A program made the translations under genes and the position numbers. The notes under the pieces are model-generated. The model was not told the DNA's origin. It made no database searches and saw only the letters and a list, made by a program, of their open reading frames with translations. From the NCBI GenBank assembly GCA_021162885.1, contig JAGGXV010000022.1, forward strand, positions 1 to 55,570: a stretch of 55,570 nt of DNA, written 5' to 3'. Within the stretch, counting starts at the first letter, position 1, and each line of letters begins with the position of its first letter. Shown in pieces: positions 11,406-37,536 of this stretch. The DNA comes from a bacterium (lineage in GTDB: Bacteria; Patescibacteriota; Minisyncoccia; Minisyncoccales; CG1-02-41-26).

Positions 11406-12515
11406 TTATTTAAGATATTCCAAAAGATAACAAGCAATTATCTTTGCTGCTTTTGGCCGGCTGAAATTCTTGGCCGCTTCAGCCATTTTTTGGAGAATAT
11501 CGGGCCGAGAAAACAAATATTTCAATTTTTCTAAAAAGAAATGAGGCCTTAAATTTTTCTCCTCAATAACCTCAGCAGCCCCTATTTTTGAGAAAGCATA
11601 GGCATTTTCCAACTGATGATTTTGAGCCGAAGTTGGCAACGGAATTAACAAAGAAGGCTTACCAACCGCGGCAATTTCGAAAATACTACCCGCTCCAGCC
11701 CTCGAGACTACCAAATCGCAGCAAAAAAAGGCATTCTTTAAGTAGTTTTCATTTAAAAAAGGAAAAGGATGATAATATTTTTTTAAACTTTGTTCTGATA
11801 TCATAACTTCTGCTTCAGCTTTCACTCGGCTGAAATTTCTTTGGCCTGTCTGGTGAATTATTTCAAAATCGGCGACTAATTCTGGCAGAATTTCAAGAAT
11901 TGTTTCGTTTATGCTCCTTGCTCCTTGTGATCCTCCGAAAATTAAAATTAAAGGTTTGTTGCCTTGTAGGTTAAAGATTTTTTTTGGTTCAACTCCCATA
12001 TCTTTTAAAATTTCTTCTCTGATTGGGTTGCCAACACAAATCATTTTTTCTTTTGGAAAAAATCTGGTTTTAGGGAAAGAAGTAAAAATTTCCAACGCCC
12101 ATTTACTTTCTATTTTTGCTGCCAGTCCCGGGCTAATGTCTGATTCATGCAAGAAAATTGGAATATGCAAGATTCGTGCTGCCATCACTGCGGGAAAAGA
12201 GCCGTATCCTCCCTTACTGAACACAACATCGGGAGCTAAAAAGAAAAGCCAAAAGAATGCCTGTAAGGTTCCAATAGGAATTTTAAGAATGTCCAAAAAA
12301 TTTTTCAAAGAGAAATACCTTCTCAGCTTACCAGCCAATATTTTTTTCACCATTACTCCTTCTCCAGAAAGTAAAGTTAAACTATATTTATCTTTGGGAC
12401 CTAAGTAAAACAATTTGAGCTCAGGGCCCGAATAAATTTTTTTCAGTTCTCTGACGATAGCGACAATTGGGAAAGTGTGGCCAGCTGTTCCACCGCCGGT
12501 AAAAACAATTTTCAT
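11406..12515 (-). CDS. murG: UDP-N-acetylglucosamine--N-acetylmuramyl-(pentapeptide) pyrophosphoryl-undecaprenol GlcNAc transferase
   Basis: 369 aa. It shows KIVFTGGGTAGHTFP, and its C-terminal domain has GGSQGA and RAGAGSIFE. Confidence 0.93.
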   Translation of the reverse strand: MKIVFTGGGTAGHTFPIVAIVRELKKIYSGPELKLFYLGPKDKYSLTLLSGEGVMVKKILAGKLRRYFSLKNFLDILKIPIGTLQAFFWLFFLAPDVVFSKGGYGSFPAVMAARILHIPIFLHESDISPGLAAKIESKWALEIFTSFPKTRFFPKEKMICVGNPIREEILKDMGVEPKKIFNLQGNKPLILIFGGSQGARSINETILEILPELVADFEIIHQTGQRNFSRVKAEAEVMISEQSLKKYYHPFPFLNENYLKNAFFCCDLVVSRAGAGSIFEIAAVGKPSLLIPLPTSAQNHQLENAYAFSKIGAAEVIEEKNLRPHFFLEKLKYLFSRPDILQKMAEAAKNFSRPKAAKIIACYLLEYLK

Positions 12516-12524
12516 AAAATCCTC

Positions 12525-12585
12525 TCGAATTACGAATCTAGTCGAATTACGAATATTCGTAATTCGTGTTCATTCGTAATTCGTA
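12525..12585 (-). repeat. palindromic AATTCGT-heptamer intergenic cassette (copy A) between ftsW stop and murG start
   Basis: tcgaattacgaat occurs twice (12525-37, 12542-54), followed by attcgtaattcg (12555-66) and attcgtaattcgta (12572-85). The core gaattacgaatattcgtaattc is a perfect 22-bp palindrome. Confidence 0.9.
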
Positions 12586-12588
12586 GGG

Positions 12589-13716
12589 TTATTTCCTTGA
12601 AATATTAAGCAAAATTCCTATTCCAATTAATTCTGTTATCAGGTGCGACCCTCCATAGCTGAAAAAAGGCAAAGGAATCCCAGCTAAAGGTAAAATCCCT
12701 ATCATTCCTCCGATATTGAAAACAGTTTGTGAAACTATCCAAACTGTGATTCCTAAAGCTAAAACACGGGAAAAACTTTTTTCTGAAGTTGCAGCGGTTT
12801 TGAGACCTCTCCATAGAAAAACCAAAAAAAGGAATAGAAGAAAGAAAGAACCAATAAACCCTGTCTCTTCTCCTATTATAGCAAAAATTGAGTCAGATAT
12901 TGAGTGGGGTAAAAAGCCAAATTTTTGGCGCGACAACCCAAGCCCAAATCCGCCCTCAATGCCAAATATCTTTCCTGAACCTATGGCAATTAAAGCCTGT
13001 TTCAACTGATAACTGATTCCCAAAGGATCAGTTTCGGGATGGAAAACACTGAATACTCTGGCGGCTCTGTAAGGAGCAATTTTTATCAAGAGAGCCGCTA
13101 TCCCTCCTCCTCCCAAAATCATCACCAGCGAATGCCACCAAGGAGTAGGGCTGGCAAAATACATTAACAAAGCAGTAATCAGAATTATCCCGGCTGTGCT
13201 CATATCGGGTTGCAAAAGTAGCCCAATTCCCAAAACTGCTAAAATTGCCAAAAAGACAATCCAGGTTTGAATTCTTTTAGTTTTTGAAAGCGCTGTCCTT
13301 TCCCCAAATTTATTAGAAAGCCAAGCAGCGAGATAAAGCAAGAAAGTGATTTTTAAAAACTCTGATGGTTGAAACAAAATTGGCCCCAAACCAATCCAGC
13401 GGCTTGCTCCTCCGATTTCAATTCCAATTTTTGGCAAGAAAACAAAAAATAAAAGTATTAAATTCAACAAAAATAACCGAGGGCCCCATTTCTGAAAAAA
13501 ATTTAAAGGCAAACGAAAACAAATAAAACCTATCAATATTCCAGGAACGAGACCAGCTAATATCTGATGAAAGAAATAATGCCAGATATTTCCATATTTT
13601 TCCAAAGAGAGAGGAATAGAAACAGTTCCAATAGTAAATATCCCCCACAGGACCAAGATGGAAACTACTCCAAGCAATACATAATCAGGGTGAGAAGTGC
13701 TATTTTTTACCTCCAT
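12589..13716 (-). CDS. ftsW: SEDS-family peptidoglycan glycosyltransferase (FtsW/RodA)
   Basis: 375 aa and polytopic. The C-terminal signature is GILPLAGIPLPFFSYGGSHL. Confidence 0.9.
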   Translation of the reverse strand: MEVKNSTSHPDYVLLGVVSILVLWGIFTIGTVSIPLSLEKYGNIWHYFFHQILAGLVPGILIGFICFRLPLNFFQKWGPRLFLLNLILLFFVFLPKIGIEIGGASRWIGLGPILFQPSEFLKITFLLYLAAWLSNKFGERTALSKTKRIQTWIVFLAILAVLGIGLLLQPDMSTAGIILITALLMYFASPTPWWHSLVMILGGGGIAALLIKIAPYRAARVFSVFHPETDPLGISYQLKQALIAIGSGKIFGIEGGFGLGLSRQKFGFLPHSISDSIFAIIGEETGFIGSFFLLFLFLVFLWRGLKTAATSEKSFSRVLALGITVWIVSQTVFNIGGMIGILPLAGIPLPFFSYGGSHLITELIGIGILLNISRK

Positions 13717-15052
13717 ATATCTTTATGAATCTCTTAAATAAATTTCCTCTCTGGCGATAATTTTTAAATAAATTGAAACTTGGAGCAGCTGGGCTGAGCA
13801 AACAAGCACTCCCCTTCTCTGTATTTTCGTAGGCTGTTTTTATGGCTTCTTTCATTGAACGGACAAAAAAGCTCTTTGGCAGATTCTTTGAGTTCTTTTT
13901 CAGATTAAGAATTTCTTGCCAAATTTTCTTCCCCGTGCCCGGTGACAAAAAAATCAAAGTTTTGACATTACTTTTTAAAATCCTTTTAGCCAAGAGAGAA
14001 AAATCAATTCCTCCCTTATCAGACCCTCCCAGGATTAATGTTTTTACTTTGTTTCTCAAAGCCTCAAGGGCAGCGATGGTAGCCTGGGGAACCGTGGCTA
14101 AAGAGTCATTATAAAACTCTATCCCCCTATATTTGCCAACATATTCTAATCTATGAGGCAATGGTTTAAATTCTTTTAGAGCTTCTTTTATTTTTGTTTT
14201 AGGAATATTAAACAACTTCCCTACCTTGATGGCTGTTATTGTGTTAAAAAGATTGAATTTTCCAATTAAAGGAATTTTTTTAATTTCATTCCTAATTCGT
14301 TTAAATTCGTAATTCGTAGGTTTGATAGGGATTTTTTTAGCGTTTGTTTTTTCTGCAACTTCTCTTAATTCTTTTTGTTCCGAATTGTAAATAAAAAAAT
14401 CATTTTTTCTCTGATGTAAAGTAATATTTTCTTTAGCTTTTTTGTAATTTTGGAAGTTTTTGTAATAATCCAAATGAGCCGGCCAAAGATTTAAAAAAAC
14501 AGCAATCTGAGGAGATTTTTTAAGATTTTGCAATTGATGAGAAGATAACTCATAAACGAAGATGTCGTTTTTTTTGGCTCTGAGTAAGCTTTGAAAAACT
14601 GGCTTGCCAATGTTCCCTACCAAATGAACCTTCAATCCCCCTTTTTTTAGAATTTTGTAAATTAAAGAAGCAGTGGTTCCTTTCCCTTTCGTTCCTGTTA
14701 CTCCAACAATTTTGCCAGGACAATTATCAAAAAAAATCTCAGTTTGGGAAGTTATTTTTGTTCCCTTTTTTAAAAAAGGTTTGATAATTTTTAAAGGAAT
14801 TCCCGGTGTTTTAATTATTAAATTGTAATTTTTCAGAGAGTTTAGATAATCTTTACCAAAATACAATTTTGTTTTTTTGTCAAATCTCAAGAGATATTGA
14901 GTTTTTTCTGGCAGTTTTTTGAACTCTTGCCTATCAGCGATTGCTAAAATTTTCCTTGGAAAAAGTTTCCTCAAAGCCAAGAAAGTGTCTTTCCCTTCCT
15001 TGCCAAATCCCAAAATCAATATTTTTTTGTTCTTTAATTCTTCTAAACTCAT
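13700..15052 (-). CDS. murD: UDP-N-acetylmuramoylalanine--D-glutamate ligase
   Basis: It shows a Rossmann N-terminus KILILGFGKEGK and the Mur ligase P-loop GVTGTKGKGTTA, and it lies in a murD-ftsW-murG context. I prefer the ATG at 15052 (MSLEEL); the ORF-track start at 15067 is TTG. Confidence 0.88.
   Translation of the reverse strand: MSLEELKNKKILILGFGKEGKDTFLALRKLFPRKILAIADRQEFKKLPEKTQYLLRFDKKTKLYFGKDYLNSLKNYNLIIKTPGIPLKIIKPFLKKGTKITSQTEIFFDNCPGKIVGVTGTKGKGTTASLIYKILKKGGLKVHLVGNIGKPVFQSLLRAKKNDIFVYELSSHQLQNLKKSPQIAVFLNLWPAHLDYYKNFQNYKKAKENITLHQRKNDFFIYNSEQKELREVAEKTNAKKIPIKPTNYEFKRIRNEIKKIPLIGKFNLFNTITAIKVGKLFNIPKTKIKEALKEFKPLPHRLEYVGKYRGIEFYNDSLATVPQATIAALEALRNKVKTLILGGSDKGGIDFSLLAKRILKSNVKTLIFLSPGTGKKIWQEILNLKKNSKNLPKSFFVRSMKEAIKTAYENTEKGSACLLSPAAPSFNLFKNYRQRGNLFKRFIKIYGGKK
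14294..14317 (-). repeat. AATTCGT heptamer block embedded in murD coding sequence
   Basis: aattcgt tta aattcgt aattcgt. In gene orientation it reads CCTACGAATTACGAAT-TTAAAC-GAATTA, matching the left arm of the intergenic cassette. It encodes PTNYEFKRIRN. Confidence 0.85.
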
Positions 15053-28446: not shown

Positions 28447-29031
28447 CTACCCAAGTGCTATTGATTCTAAGATTGTGTATTCTGCACCGGTTCTTTTCAA
28501 TTTGCTTTCCATTATTTCAATTGACTTGACTTCAAAATCCAAAGAAATTTCTTTTTCAATCTCCGGCCGTTCTTCTGGTTCAATTCTTCTCCACTGCCAT
28601 GTCCTGATTCTTCCTAAAGTAATATGGGGAGAAAACTCCCTTTTTTCTACTTTTCTCAAAATGCCGGATTTAGCCATCTCTTTTTTCAGTTTTTCAGCCG
28701 AATTCAACAATTCTGGCTTTTTTTCTAATTCAATCCAGATTAAACGGGGTGGTATTTGTTTTGGTGGTCCATAACATACTTTTTTAAATTTCAGAGAAAA
28801 TGGCTTTTGCGCCTCCGCGATATTCTTTACAATTTGGCGAATTTTGGGAATTTTTTCATCTTCGACCGAGCCAATAAAAAGCAAAGTCAGATGCAAATTC
28901 TCCTTTTTCACCCAGCGAACCACTCCCCTATTTGCTTCTTCAGGGAATAAACTATCTAATTCTTTTTCTAAATTCTCTAACTCAGTTTTAATCTTTTCCG
29001 GTAAATTTATAGCAATAAAAATCCTTTTCAT
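28447..29031 (-). CDS. thpR: RNA 2',3'-cyclic phosphodiesterase / 2'-5' RNA ligase (2H phosphoesterase, LigT/ThpR)
   Basis: 194 aa. It has the two H-x-T-x motifs HLTLLFIG and HITLGRI. Confidence 0.88.
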   Translation of the reverse strand: MKRIFIAINLPEKIKTELENLEKELDSLFPEEANRGVVRWVKKENLHLTLLFIGSVEDEKIPKIRQIVKNIAEAQKPFSLKFKKVCYGPPKQIPPRLIWIELEKKPELLNSAEKLKKEMAKSGILRKVEKREFSPHITLGRIRTWQWRRIEPEERPEIEKEISLDFEVKSIEIMESKLKRTGAEYTILESIALG

Positions 29032-29039
29032 ACTCTACC

Positions 29040-29145
29040 AATTACGAATGAAACACGAATTACGAATTTATTCAATTTTAAATCATTTTATGATAAGATT
29101 CAATAATACTAATACTCTATTCGTAATTCGATAAAATTCGTAATT
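29040..29145 (+). repeat. AATTCGT-heptamer cassette (copy D) with ~50-bp insert between arms, immediately upstream of amrS
   Basis: The left arm is aattacgaat-gaaacac-gaattacgaatt (29040-29068). The right arm is attcgtaattcga-taa-aattcgtaatt (29119-29145). The 28 nt at 29118-29145 are identical to 33716-33743. Confidence 0.9.
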
Positions 29146-29157
29146 TGTGAGGAATTT

Positions 29158-33005: not shown

Positions 33006-33681
33006 AAATAATAAAAATAAAGAAATTGCTAAAATTTTAAGAGAAATTAAAGATTACCTTTTACTTTTAAGAGGCACACCCTACAGACCAAGAGCTTATG
33101 AGAGAGCGGCAGAAATATTAGAAAATTTTAATCAAGATATCGCAACAATTTATAAAAATAAAGGTTTAAAAAGCCTTCAAGGAATTAGAGGTATTGGCAA
33201 AAGCATTGCCAAGAAAATTGAAGAATATCTAAAAACAAAGAAAATAAAATATCTTGAAGATTTAAAAGAGAAAACAAAAATTCAGCAAATTGTTACCCAT
33301 TATTTTAAAACAAAAGGATTAAGTTTAGAACAAATCAAAAAAGACGCCAAAAAGAAAAAAATAATTTATTCTCGCTATACTAAACCCGCAAAACAACTTT
33401 TGGAGTTAGCCGGTTCTGTTGAGAAAGCGAAAAAAGCCCTTGATGTGGTCGCTGAATGGGCAAAATCAAGGGGTTTAGATTATGCTATTGAGACAGTTTT
33501 TAAAAAATGGTTAGAACTTGACAGATTGAAGCCAAAAGAGATAATCAAAAAACCATTCTATGAAGGAAATCCTATGGTTTGGTCCCAAACCCACAAAAAG
33601 TGGTATGTGATTGATGAAAATGGAGAATGGTTAGAATTTGTTGGTAAAGAGGAAGACATCGAATGGCGCACAATTAAATAA
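32995..33681 (+). CDS. helix-hairpin-helix protein resembling the PolX N-terminal (8-kDa lyase-like) domain, plus uncharacterised C-terminal domain
   Basis: 228 aa. It reads IAKILREIKDYLLLLRGTPYRPRAYERAAEIL ... LQGIRGIGKSIAKKIEEYL. It overlaps amrA by 11 nt. Confidence 0.6.
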   Translation: MANENNKNKEIAKILREIKDYLLLLRGTPYRPRAYERAAEILENFNQDIATIYKNKGLKSLQGIRGIGKSIAKKIEEYLKTKKIKYLEDLKEKTKIQQIVTHYFKTKGLSLEQIKKDAKKKKIIYSRYTKPAKQLLELAGSVEKAKKALDVVAEWAKSRGLDYAIETVFKKWLELDRLKPKEIIKKPFYEGNPMVWSQTHKKWYVIDENGEWLEFVGKEEDIEWRTIK

Positions 33682-33684
33682 CCC

Positions 33685-33746
33685 TACGAATTACGAATAC
33701 AACACTAATTACGAATATTCGTAATTCGATAAAATTCGTAATTCGT
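33685..33746 (+). repeat. palindromic AATTCGT-heptamer intergenic cassette (copy E) between the HhH gene stop and fmt start
   Basis: tacgaattacgaat (33685-98), taattacgaat|attcgtaattcga (33706-29) and aattcgtaattcgt (33733-46). It aligns over nearly its whole length with the reverse complement of copy A. Confidence 0.9.
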
Positions 33747-33756
33747 GAAGAAGTTT

Positions 33757-34734
33757 ATGAAAATTATATTTATGGGAACTCCTGAGTTTGGAGCGATTAT
33801 TTTGGAAAAACTTGCTGAAACCCCCTTCAAGCCAATTTTAGTTGTCACCTCTCCTGACAAGCCAGTAGGCAGAAAACAAATTCTAACTCCCCCACCGGTC
33901 AAAGTCATTGCACAGAAATATGGTATTCCAGTTGAGCAACCCGATGAAATTGAAAATTGTAAATTGAAAATTGAAAACTTAAAACCGGATTTAGGGATAG
34001 TGGCCGCCTATGGCAAAATTTTACCAAAAGACATATTAAATATTCCCAAATTTGGTTTTCTCAATGTCCATCCTTCCCTTCTTCCCAAATACCGAGGTCC
34101 CTCTCCCATTCGGTCTGTCATTTTAGAGAACGAGGAAGAAACCGGGGTGACCATAATTTTAATGGACGAGAAAATGGACCACGGACCGATTTTAAAGCAA
34201 AAGGGATTAAAATTAAGGGGAGAAGAAACCTTTGAAAAACTTACTAAAGATTTAGCTGAACTGGGTTCAACTCTTTTGATAAATACCATTCCGTTTTGGT
34301 TGAAGGGTGTGATTGAACCCCGACCCCAAGATGAAAGAGAAGCCACTTACACTAAAATTTTTACCAGAGAAGATGGTGAGATTAACTGGCAAAAATCAGC
34401 CGAGCAAATTGAACGAGAAATAAGAGCTTTTTATCCCTGGCCCGGTAGTTATACATTTTGGAGGAGAGTTGGCAAATGGGGAAGAAGAAGCGAAACCTTG
34501 AGAATAAAAATCATAAAGGCAAAAGTTTCAAAGTCCTCAGGGATTCTTTATCCCATTGGCAAAACCATTGCAGGACCCGATAACAAATTTTATGTTCAGT
34601 GTGGTGGTCTTCCCTATAGAGCCCCCAGAGATTTCTTGTTGGTTGAAAAACTACAACTCGAAGGAAAAAAACCAGTAACTTCCGAAGAATTTTTAAGGGG
34701 CTACCCTGATTTCATTGGCACCATCCTTCAATAA
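33757..34734 (+). CDS. fmt: methionyl-tRNA formyltransferase
   Basis: Motifs are MKIIFMGTPEFG, NVHPSLLPKYRGPSPI and MDEKMDHGPIL. I prefer the ATG at 33757 over the GTG at 33745. Confidence 0.92.
   Translation: MKIIFMGTPEFGAIILEKLAETPFKPILVVTSPDKPVGRKQILTPPPVKVIAQKYGIPVEQPDEIENCKLKIENLKPDLGIVAAYGKILPKDILNIPKFGFLNVHPSLLPKYRGPSPIRSVILENEEETGVTIILMDEKMDHGPILKQKGLKLRGEETFEKLTKDLAELGSTLLINTIPFWLKGVIEPRPQDEREATYTKIFTREDGEINWQKSAEQIEREIRAFYPWPGSYTFWRRVGKWGRRSETLRIKIIKAKVSKSSGILYPIGKTIAGPDNKFYVQCGGLPYRAPRDFLLVEKLQLEGKKPVTSEEFLRGYPDFIGTILQ
33952..33979. repeat. GAAAATT-type heptamer block inside fmt
   Basis: gaaaatt gtaaatt gaaaatt gaaaact. It encodes IENCKLKIEN, and murC has the same peptide stretch. 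Confidence 0.9.
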
Positions 34735-36867: not shown

Positions 36868-36882
36868 AATTCGTAATTCGTA
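36868..36882 (-). repeat. half copy (left arm) of the AATTCGT cassette directly after the gtrA-like stop
   Basis: The minus strand reads TAA-CTCTACGAATTACGAAT. Copies A and E have the same stop-codon-abutting start. Confidence 0.8.
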
Positions 36883-36885
36883 GAG

Positions 36886-37536
36886 TTATTTTTTAAATAT
36901 AATAAATTTGTAGCTTGAAAAGTTCCAGATGCAAGCACAAAGAACGGCTACAAAAGCTCCGATATTTGCCCAGATTAGCGGAGAAATTCCCAGCTTTGGG
37001 CCTATAACATTAACAATCAGAGAAGCCACTCCAACATTTATTAAAAAGCCAATTCCAGTTGCTAAATAAAATTTAGAAAACTCCCCTGCCCCAACTTTGG
37101 TTTCTTTCTTTTGAAAGGTCCAGAATTTATTCCAAAGATAAGAATTAAAAGTTGCTGAACTGAAAGAGATTGCTTTAAAAACCGAATACTCCCAACCAGC
37201 CATGGTTTGACTGAGCCACATCAGAAGATTCAAAACTCCAAAATCAATAAAGGTATTCAGAGAACCAACTAAAGCGAATTTAAAAAATTGAAAAATGGCA
37301 ACTACTCTTTCTTTAAAAAGTGAACCCACTAAAATGTAGATTAAAGCTAACAAAGGCAAGATTATTGGTAAAAATTTTAGAGCAAAATTTAAAGGAACAA
37401 ACAAAAACCCCATTCTTACCTTCTGAAGAAAATTTGCTAAATCAAAACCAATTGCCCTGAGAATTGCCAATAGCAACCAAGCATCGGCTTCAGCAATAAT
37501 AATTGGCGCTATAATATCAACTTTCTTTAAACGCAT
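36886..37536 (-). CDS. GtrA-family membrane protein
   Basis: 216 aa and polytopic. The GtrA-like segment is FKFALVGSLNTFIDFGVLNLLMW. The C-terminus is WNFSSYKFIIFKK. Confidence 0.75.
   Translation of the reverse strand: MRLKKVDIIAPIIIAEADAWLLLAILRAIGFDLANFLQKVRMGFLFVPLNFALKFLPIILPLLALIYILVGSLFKERVVAIFQFFKFALVGSLNTFIDFGVLNLLMWLSQTMAGWEYSVFKAISFSSATFNSYLWNKFWTFQKKETKVGAGEFSKFYLATGIGFLINVGVASLIVNVIGPKLGISPLIWANIGAFVAVLCACIWNFSSYKFIIFKK

Follow-up and report, generated by a model that had tools for sequence, protein, structure and literature searches.

How does one and the same palindrome come to lie, from stop codon to start codon, between unrelated genes of a single bacterium, and what kind of DNA is it? 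The question is raised by a stretch of 55,570 nucleotides (nt), referred to here as the window (contig JAGGXV010000022.1 of assembly GCA_021162885.1, positions 1 to 55,570 of the forward strand), from a member of Patescibacteriota (Minisyncoccia; Minisyncoccales; CG1-02-41-26). A palindromic AATTCGT cassette had been noticed there in three full copies, which we call A, D and E. We suggest that this cassette probably represents a small selfish element, composed of a nuclease gene and hairpin-forming arms, in miniature and without its gene, while leaving considerable room for other accounts. What is new here is that the cassette is tied to genes of the GxxExxY family, that its arms are conserved across phyla, and that its junctions with stop and start codons follow a common geometry.

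As repeat unit we take the 12-mer ATTCGTAATTCG, a pair of ATTCGTA heptamers. Two direct 12-mers placed 17-18 nt apart (four heptamers in all) form an arm, and the 5-6 nt spacer between them is conserved in length, not in sequence. The full cassette is made of two inward-facing arms and is thus a palindrome of four units, with the outer ends CCCTA and TAGGG. When one mismatch to the 12-mer is allowed, the window contains 15 matches against 0.26 expected, a number reached in none of 100 shuffles. Re-reading of the sequence placed copies A, D and E where the original prediction had put them and in the layout it had described. Its view that they represent neither chance nor merely an over-represented word is borne out by the excess of matches and by the architecture common to the seven full copies of the genome. 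One detail needs correction: the perfect central palindrome, given as 22 bp, measures 24 bp in copy A.

The whole genome (574,525 bp in 27 contigs, 36.5% G+C, 91% complete; G000 in the following) harbors 56 units with at most one mismatch, distributed over 24 loci. Seven of these loci are full four-unit cassettes (contig and position C2:15282, C2:29579, C16:12526, C16:29038, C16:33687, C16:135273 and C23:27060), single arms with two direct units 17-18 nt apart are present at about eight, and single or degenerate units make up the remainder. The full copies share one asymmetry. In all seven, one arm contains a GAAAC(A)-like spacer (GAACA, ACAACA, AGACCA, GAAACT, GAAACA, GAAACC, AGAACA) and the other arm an ATAAA-like spacer (ACTAG, five times ATAAA, ATAGA). 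The GAAAC arm with its CCCTA end is directed towards the upstream stop codon in six of the seven (in copy D towards a divergent start), and likewise in six the ATAAA arm is turned to the downstream start, with a Shine-Dalgarno stretch of GAGG type in between. The copy at C23:27060 is reversed and has TAGGG-AT-ATG before groES. The fixed orientation that had been claimed therefore holds, as judged from the asymmetric spacers, for six of seven full copies relative to their flanking genes and fails for this one. Because the spacers are both shared and asymmetric, they argue that the seven copies go back to one asymmetric master copy instead of having arisen separately in place.

The link to a gene comes from other genomes. 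At locus L062 (Bacteroidota) and locus L076 (Saccharibacteria), arms about 400-510 nt apart enclose an open reading frame (ORF) of 130 or 134 amino acids (aa), which matches both PF13366 PDDEXK_3 (E = 8e-28 and 3e-23) and TIGR04256 GxxExxY. The two proteins are 53% identical and keep the D...ExK motif, with D74, E84 and K86 invariant. An alignment search with both proteins, which reaches close relatives only and is no measure of the whole GxxExxY family, returned seven loci of 37-100% identity, three from Bacteroidota and four from Patescibacteria. TACGAAT-type arms with CTA/TAG(G) ends are present on both sides of the gene in all seven relatives found. Around the four proteins of at least 54% identity the 12-mers are exact or one letter off, and variant arms surround the three proteins of 37-49% identity. 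The taxonomic family of G000 itself contains such an element: genome G003 (locus L273) carries a 131-aa GxxExxY gene, 54% identical to that of L076 (E = 3e-52), in the arrangement TAA-CCCTA-CGAATTACGAAT ... ATTCGTAATTCG-TAGGG-AT-ATG. Two of the 12-mer units of this genome flank the gene, and the junctions (stop plus 5 nt; TAGGGAT-ATG) are the same as in G000. Moreover, at least two assemblies of Bacteroidota (with the record prefixes JAZKDU01 and JAZKBF01) contain empty copies alongside gene-bearing ones. The GxxExxY protein of 130-134 aa is the only gene seen between arms, and no recognised transposase was seen there.

We infer from these comparisons that empty cassettes derive from the gene-bearing element and that the copies would have spread as DNA from the asymmetric master copy. 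The cassette looks like an undescribed kind of selfish DNA. The original prediction had left the choice between a portable intercistronic module and a miniature mobile element; this general idea is supported, and the mobile option gains most, as the arms enclose a GxxExxY nuclease gene elsewhere. The gene link, the spread across phyla and the frequent single arms, unable to form a hairpin, were beyond what could be seen in the window. In the literature searched, supplements excluded, we found neither GxxExxY genes with repeat arms nor palindromic repeats in Patescibacteria.

We consider the arms or the arm-arm junction to be the most likely target of the nuclease, which would act by homing or gene conversion: the 12-mers have remained exact while the proteins have drifted to about 53-54% identity. 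Such a combination points to a sequence-specific constraint rather than to recent transfer alone. Small homing endonucleases of the PD-(D/E)XK fold have a precedent in I-Ssp6803I. A more ambitious version of this idea can be formulated, and we offer it as speculation that may well prove wrong. The 12-mer arms would be the recognition site of the GxxExxY protein; cutting of empty arm-arm junctions would drive homing or gene conversion and thereby the spread through operon junctions, the likeness of copies within a genome and the transfer between phyla as distant as Patescibacteria and Bacteroidota; the host would use the hairpin, which has a Shine-Dalgarno sequence at its base, for translational coupling; and the whole would constitute a new class of mobile elements.

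How the cassettes are positioned in G000 bears on the rival view that they serve the host. For G000 we prepared a set of 599 ORFs, which covers 90% of the genome. Twenty of the 24 loci are intergenic; the other four lie inside ORFs, namely those of a thiamine pyrophosphate (TPP) enzyme, a Mur ligase and RsmH, and one 1-mismatch match that may be due to chance. In 15 of the 20 intergenic loci the end of a unit is followed at 6-11 nt by a start codon (the starts of fmt and of the HIT gene being corrected by reading the sequence), and at seven loci the CCCTA end lies exactly 5 nt past a stop codon. Exact period-7 runs of the ATTCGTA motif are intergenic in 40 of 44 cases in a genome that is 90% coding. 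Among runs at most 40 nt from a start, 22 face it and five face away, and all seven one-directional loci adjoining a start face it (one-sided binomial p = 0.008). Random orientation and position relative to genes were thus not observed. The flanking gene pairs at the 20 loci (19 co-directional, one divergent, none convergent) do not differ significantly from the 80/10/10% baseline. Cassettes fill short spacers between co-directional housekeeping genes of cell wall, ribosomal and tRNA synthetase operons. A regulon was considered and rejected: the 35 neighbouring proteins have unrelated functions, and the downstream genes are unrelated housekeeping genes.

According to the rival view, the cassettes are a post-transcriptional signal of the host, in which AUUCGUA repeats (AUUCGUAAUUCG RNA) before start codons bind an RNA-binding regulator or a translation factor, and the nuclease genes are incidental cargo. 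The facing of start codons at short distance, including the seven of seven one-directional loci, agrees with it. Further, single arms keep the start-side position even though they are unable to fold as a hairpin, the same outward preference for ORF starts is found in foreign genomes (see below), and, as far as the available text of that study goes, another heptamer has the same geometry and a patchy cross-phylum spread (MacGregor 2015, PMC4679880). The downstream genes are nevertheless without common function, and the absence of the motif from all 400 sampled genomes of the phylum and its presence in few close relatives are unlike a core regulator. In addition, stop-side arms and in-gene copies have no start to regulate, and the arms travel with one gene subfamily. 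We therefore regard a host signal as an unlikely primary explanation, yet as the most serious of the alternatives.

Outside G000 the cassette has a patchy distribution. No exact arm (two units with 4-7 nt between them) was found in the 40 closest relatives, even when two mismatches are allowed, or in 400 other sampled genomes of Patescibacteria. Elsewhere it occurs at more than 123 loci, with one genome per species scanned. The first 80 of these include 48 from Bacteroidota, 28 from Patescibacteria (Azam-, Staskawicz-, Uhrbacteria, Saccharibacteria and others), one from a cyanobacterium and one from Desulfobacterales. Among the foreign loci listed, arms in both directions are present at 61 of 123, always in the order minus then plus; the inverted arms of G000 and of these loci show only the order CGAATTACGAAT...ATTCGTAATTCG. 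The opposite order was met, among the matches listed, only across gaps of at least 388 nt (L075, L090 and L116), and these gaps hold host genes, namely L24, a DksA-like ORF and NusB, as read from their N-termini. Two same-direction arms at L043 flank RpiB, which was named in the same manner. TAG follows 91 of 145 arms at the foreign loci listed, and an ORF starts 3-15 nt past the outer end in 54 of the 145, versus seven on the inner side. The centres between foreign arms vary from 0 to about 135 nt and contain further hairpins in some lineages. Within the taxonomic family of the window, exact 12-mers number 42 in G000, six in G022, five in G041, four in G003 and one in G008, and none in the other 21 genomes; the reversed pattern, used as control, gave 0-1. 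At L014 and L019, which belong to two Bacteroidota assemblies, a single arm precedes by 7-8 nt the ATG of an apparent ribosomal protein S7 (MRKTKAKKR...); this represents either a conserved position of the element or a site struck twice.

A simpler origin would be slippage. The unit is a pair of ATTCGTA heptamers, and the exact period-7 runs of G000 that reach 12 nt or more number 1055, with two other heptamers commoner than this one; the cassette could accordingly be an ordinary heptanucleotide microsatellite that has grown in place and is alike across loci only through the repeat bias of the genome. Relatives fill the rpsD-rpoA junction with arrays of other heptamers, and true tandem ATTCGTA arrays are found at L021, L054 and L060. 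In G000, however, ATTCGTA runs never exceed 16 nt and are interrupted by a spacer whose 5-6 nt do not keep the period of seven. The shared asymmetric spacers and CCCTA ends of the seven full copies, and the recurrence of the two-unit arm, its spacing and its polarity in distant phyla and around one gene subfamily, are not predicted by slippage. Among the heptamer families of G000 that we compared, it is ATTCGTA that combines a box fixed at two units with a spacer out of phase; the commonest family, AAAATTG, forms runs of up to 37 nt, 40 of them inside ORFs. Slippage in place is, in our view, improbable.

The original prediction of a long RNA hairpin agrees with computed folds. For copy A the predicted energy is -31.7 kcal/mol, compared with -11.2 ± 2.6 in 200 shuffles (z = -7.9). 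All seven full copies adopt the same predicted fold, at -23 to -33 kcal/mol, of two 10-12 bp helices and an internal loop of 5-6 nt, which results from the GAAAC and ATAAA spacers not being complementary. In six of the seven, CCC or CCU beside the stop codon pairs in this fold with AGG or GGG of the Shine-Dalgarno stretch. A terminator was rejected: a scan around copy D returned no terminator-like sites, the stem is not followed by U residues in a row, and copies A and E continue, by reading, with GAGG or GAAG instead of a T run. Known RNA families were rejected after an Rfam scan of the window at gathering thresholds gave only one tRNA. RNase III is encoded in the genome (C16:89356-89751).

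If the modelled fold forms in the cell, its consequences for translation can be imagined as follows. The transcript would fold into the two helices around the internal loop, and the outward TAGG/GAGG end, in part sequestered at the stem base, would provide the next gene with its Shine-Dalgarno sequence. The stem would be melted by a ribosome that ends translation 5 nt upstream, and downstream translation would stay coupled to that of the upstream gene. Such coupling, along with the outward Shine-Dalgarno-like ends, might be what makes insertion tolerable in operons. Cleavage or processing of the hairpin by RNase III is possible as well.

Some copies have long centres: C16:137244-137365 (outside the window, between infA and rpmJ), C14:14226-14304 and C22:21522-21558 in G000, and L013, L024, L097 and L263 elsewhere. 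These hold one or two extra hairpins, the loops of which show TACGAAT words and the stems of which differ between copies by paired changes (CCGAAGCCG/CGGCTTCGG versus CCGAAACTG/CAGTTTCGG). Either a structured RNA or a nested element might account for the extra hairpins.

Should the cassette instead act as DNA, it might be a promoter, an operator of a dimeric DNA-binding protein or a recombination site similar to attC. Two direct 12-mers with a constant spacing of 17-18 bp do resemble paired protein-binding boxes; the layout, in which an unpaired spacer separates two helices and the tip varies, is like that of an attC site in folded form; and copy D is situated between divergent genes, both of which need promoters. 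A promoter scan of copy D, however, yielded one site versus 1.6 from shuffles, and a promoter in it was rejected. Most copies lie inside operons, 5 nt past a stop codon; the units are, by reading, without the R-box words of attC (RYYYAAC and GTTRRRY); and the neighbouring genes have no common function. A DNA-level site is thus the remotest of the explanations we considered.

Comparison of gene junctions among relatives bears on whether cassettes were inserted. At the ftsW-murG junction, which in G000 is filled by copy A, the cassette is present in none of 24 genomes of the same family. Six of them have spacers of 5-25 nt and six have overlapping or abutting genes; the closest relatives have spacers of 5-42 nt or overlapping genes, and looser ACGAAT...ATTCG inverted material is found there in G006, G022 and G007. 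The comparison of syntenic loci, proposed along with the original prediction, thus looks like insertion, as judged against other genera. The rpsD-rpoA junction, with a full cassette in G000, has spacers of 12-23 nt in six of 25 relatives. Arrays of other heptamers stand inverted at the same junction in L277, L279, L286, L288 and L291, which belong to different genera; such junctions have evidently been filled again and again. Operon junctions are therefore occupied repeatedly, with a different flavour of repeat in each genome, and these data would fit repeated invasion of permissive sites.

Several observations weigh against the origin of the cassette from a nuclease-bearing element. The first comes from the same junction: in several relatives rpsD-rpoA holds hairpins built of CTTGAAA, AAACCGT, ACTTGTA or TTGAAAA heptamers, so that in-place sequence turnover, or selection by the host for a hairpin at the junction, may be at work, and overwriting of an older hairpin by the active family of the genome would fit the junction data equally well. 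Two further heptamers are also more abundant than ATTCGTA in its own genome: AAAATTG forms 107 runs and AAAAATC 54, compared with 44. No movement was observed; a metagenome scan with MurG as query gave relatives of 71-79% identity at best, and gain or loss is judged against other genera only, the 79% match coming without its upstream region. By reading, no target-site duplication is seen outside CCCTA...TAGGG/GAGG in the seven full copies and the G003 element. Arms point in one direction only at 61 of the 123 foreign loci listed and at about eight loci of G000, and such frequent single arms are not explained by a hairpin or inverted-repeat model. On the side of the enzyme, G000 shows no cognate nuclease gene in an assembled genome that is 91% complete: its cassettes agree with the GxxExxY elements (L062, L076, G003 and all seven relatives) in arm match, polarity and outer ends, whereas a gene-bearing copy was not found in this genome. 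Its only GxxExxY sequence is a fragment at a contig end (C22:35289-35420), 35% identical over 40 aa and of another subfamily. GxxExxY proteins have no match in PDB by sequence, and their nuclease activity and binding to arms are putative.

The C22 fragment is preceded by a CGCAGAA-type repeat, its downstream side being lost at the contig end. It appears as a second nuclease-plus-repeat element of a flavour different from the AATTCGT cassettes.

The copies in the window are summarised in Table 1; all gene names given for them are Pfam assignments. On the minus strand, copy A (units at 12526-12583) reads TAA-CCCTA, CGAATTACGAAT GAACA CGAATTACGAAT, ATTCGTAATTCG ACTAG ATTCGTAATTCG, AGAGGATTTT-ATG, with the upstream stop 5 nt before the cassette and the downstream start 10 nt after it; its neighbours are FtsW (12589-13716) and MurG (11406-12515). 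Copy E (units at 33687-33745) likewise begins at TAA-CCCTA, as had been noticed for both, between a HhH-domain gene (stop codon at 33679-33681) and fmt, whose ATG is at 33757. Copy D (units at 29038-29147) has a 51-bp centre and a start codon of a divergent gene at either end. The 28-nt block reported as common to copies D and E is indeed identical (29118-29145 and 33716-33743) and ends 12 and 13 nt before the two ATGs. The half copy said to abut the stop of the gtrA-like gene is a single unit (36869-36880), 94 nt from the next start, that of a dnaX-like gene.

The arm foreseen in frame inside murD is present too, as two units at 14288-14316 within the Mur ligase gene. Its peptide replaces a variable loop (FGIKKIKELEKII in relatives) at about equal length. 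G003 has one exact unit at the same spot of murD (PANYEF), and G041 (L261) has in the same MurD loop an unrelated in-frame insert of 32 aa, the DNA of which contains the inverted repeat CCCTAAAAT...ATTTTAAGGG. Palindromic inserts thus appear to have landed in this loop more than once.

Table 1. Cassette copies, parts of copies and adjoining signals in the window
Position	Strand	Feature	Remark
12516..12525	-	AGAGGATTTT, Shine-Dalgarno-like, separates copy A from the murG ATG (12513-12515)	AGG pairs with CCU at the base of the predicted hairpin
12526..12588	-	Copy A, full four-unit cassette with CCCTA outer end	Fills the FtsW-MurG spacer
14288..14320	+	One arm (ATTCCTAATTCG TTTAA ATTCGTAATTCG TAGG), in frame inside Mur ligase (murD-like) gene	Minus strand encodes PTNYEFKRIRN
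29038..29067	+	Copy D, left arm (CCAATTACGAAT GAAACA CGAATTACGAAT)	6 nt from the start of a divergent LigT-like gene (28447-29031, minus)
29068..29118	.	Copy D, centre, 51 bp, A+T-rich	One minus-strand promoter-like site, no more than in shuffles
29119..29147	+	Copy D, right arm (ATTCGTAATTCG ATAAA ATTCGTAATTTG)	10 nt before the ATG of a radical-SAM gene (29158)
33682..33745	+	Copy E, CCCTA and full four-unit cassette	One unit is CTAATTACGAAT
36869..36885	+	Single unit and TAGAG	5 nt from the stop of a GtrA-like gene (36886-37536, minus)

Among known systems, the closest working analogy is provided by repetitive extragenic palindromic (REP) sequences, or REPINs, and their RAYT transposases (REPtrons), reportedly described by Nunvar in 2010. 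In both cases short palindromic repeats are dispersed in intergenic DNA, gene-less copies far outnumber gene-bearing ones, and the enzyme gene lies between inverted repeat copies; a GTAG word stands at the end of the element (CGTAGGG in the cassette), some copies are found in genes, and abundance differs between relatives. The enzyme, in contrast, is a GxxExxY protein of about 130 aa with a PD-(D/E)XK fold, not a Y1 HUH transposase. A RAYT/IS200 link was rejected, as G000 has no PF01797 gene, while the control search was positive in six of 14 reference genomes. REPs bear their GTAG tag unpaired at one end of a 5-13 bp stem, according to the available part of one account (Di Nocera 2013, PMC3733652). 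The cassette differs in having GTAG at both outer ends, paired with CCCTACG, and two stems of 10-12 bp. Its arms are heptamer pairs that give two helices and an internal loop, and it is placed just before start codons, whereas REPs are found mainly after genes.

Likeness to other palindromic elements is more partial. Bacterial miniature inverted-repeat transposable elements (MITEs) and in-frame palindromic elements include Correia/NEMIS and the Rickettsia palindromic element (RPE). As in these, the cassette is small, non-coding and bordered by terminal inverted repeats (its arms, 29-30 bp each); it sits in operon spacers, folds as RNA by prediction and can be in frame in essential genes, as the murD copy illustrates. 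It differs in lacking a visible target-site duplication and in having a gene-bearing relative with no recognised transposase. Intervening sequences of 23S rRNA (Leptospira, Coxiella) have their small PF05635 ORF in a loop that is closed by a long stem of inverted repeats; they lie within a transcribed region and are removed by RNase III. G000 has three genes of PF05635 (23S rRNA intervening-sequence protein, a four-helix bundle) at C22:32674-32991, C13:4135-4446 and C17:1904-2218, and two of them lie between inverted arms of short tandem repeats, which are 10-mers on C22 and ATGAAAA/TTTTCAT heptamers on C13. PF05635 genes were rejected as cargo of ATTCGTA arms, as none of the three carries such arms. 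The cassette differs from the intervening sequences in its cargo gene and arms, and in its location between protein genes, not in rRNA.

Heptanucleotide simple sequence repeats of prokaryotes are said to be the subject of work by Mrazek et al. in 2007. With these the cassette shares a period of seven, over-represented in certain genomes, G000 included, and it differs by fixed copy number, out-of-phase spacer, polarity, cross-phylum conservation and gene linkage. The closest described phenomenon is that of TAACTGA heptamers, direct repeats in marine Beggiatoaceae, Cyanobacteria and Bacteroidetes for which binding of an RNA-binding regulator or a translation factor was proposed (MacGregor 2015, PMC4679880). 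Start-adjacent heptamer repeats of bacteria are, in the part of that paper available, described but unexplained. Both repeats have a 7-nt unit that holds a stop codon, are mostly intergenic and run forward a few nt from a start, and the patchy cross-phylum distribution of TAACTGA is read there as horizontal spread without a known mechanism. The cassette qualifies as a heptamer direct repeat in the same sense (a 7-nt tandem unit, intergenic, forward near starts), with arrays never above 16 nt. TAACTGA, on the other hand, is arranged in simple tandem arrays, 2-43 units long, in which inverted pairs are nearly absent, whereas the box of the cassette always has two units, is doubled with a spacer and mostly occurs as paired inverted arms. 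In the available text of the same paper no gene link is reported ('nuclease' and 'four helix' have no occurrences).

Taken together, one heptamer repeat family is tied here to a specific small nuclease gene, which offers a testable hypothesis for its origin and spread. If our assumptions are true, a PD-(D/E)XK enzyme plays the role that RAYT has for REPs, and this would be the first role for the large uncharacterised GxxExxY family. That Patescibacteria and Bacteroidota, although very distant from each other, have identical 12-mers is a mark of gene flow or shared constraint. Finally, cassettes located in core operons, together with a MurD loop that has been overwritten, would bear on gene expression and protein evolution in the minimal cells of the candidate phyla radiation.

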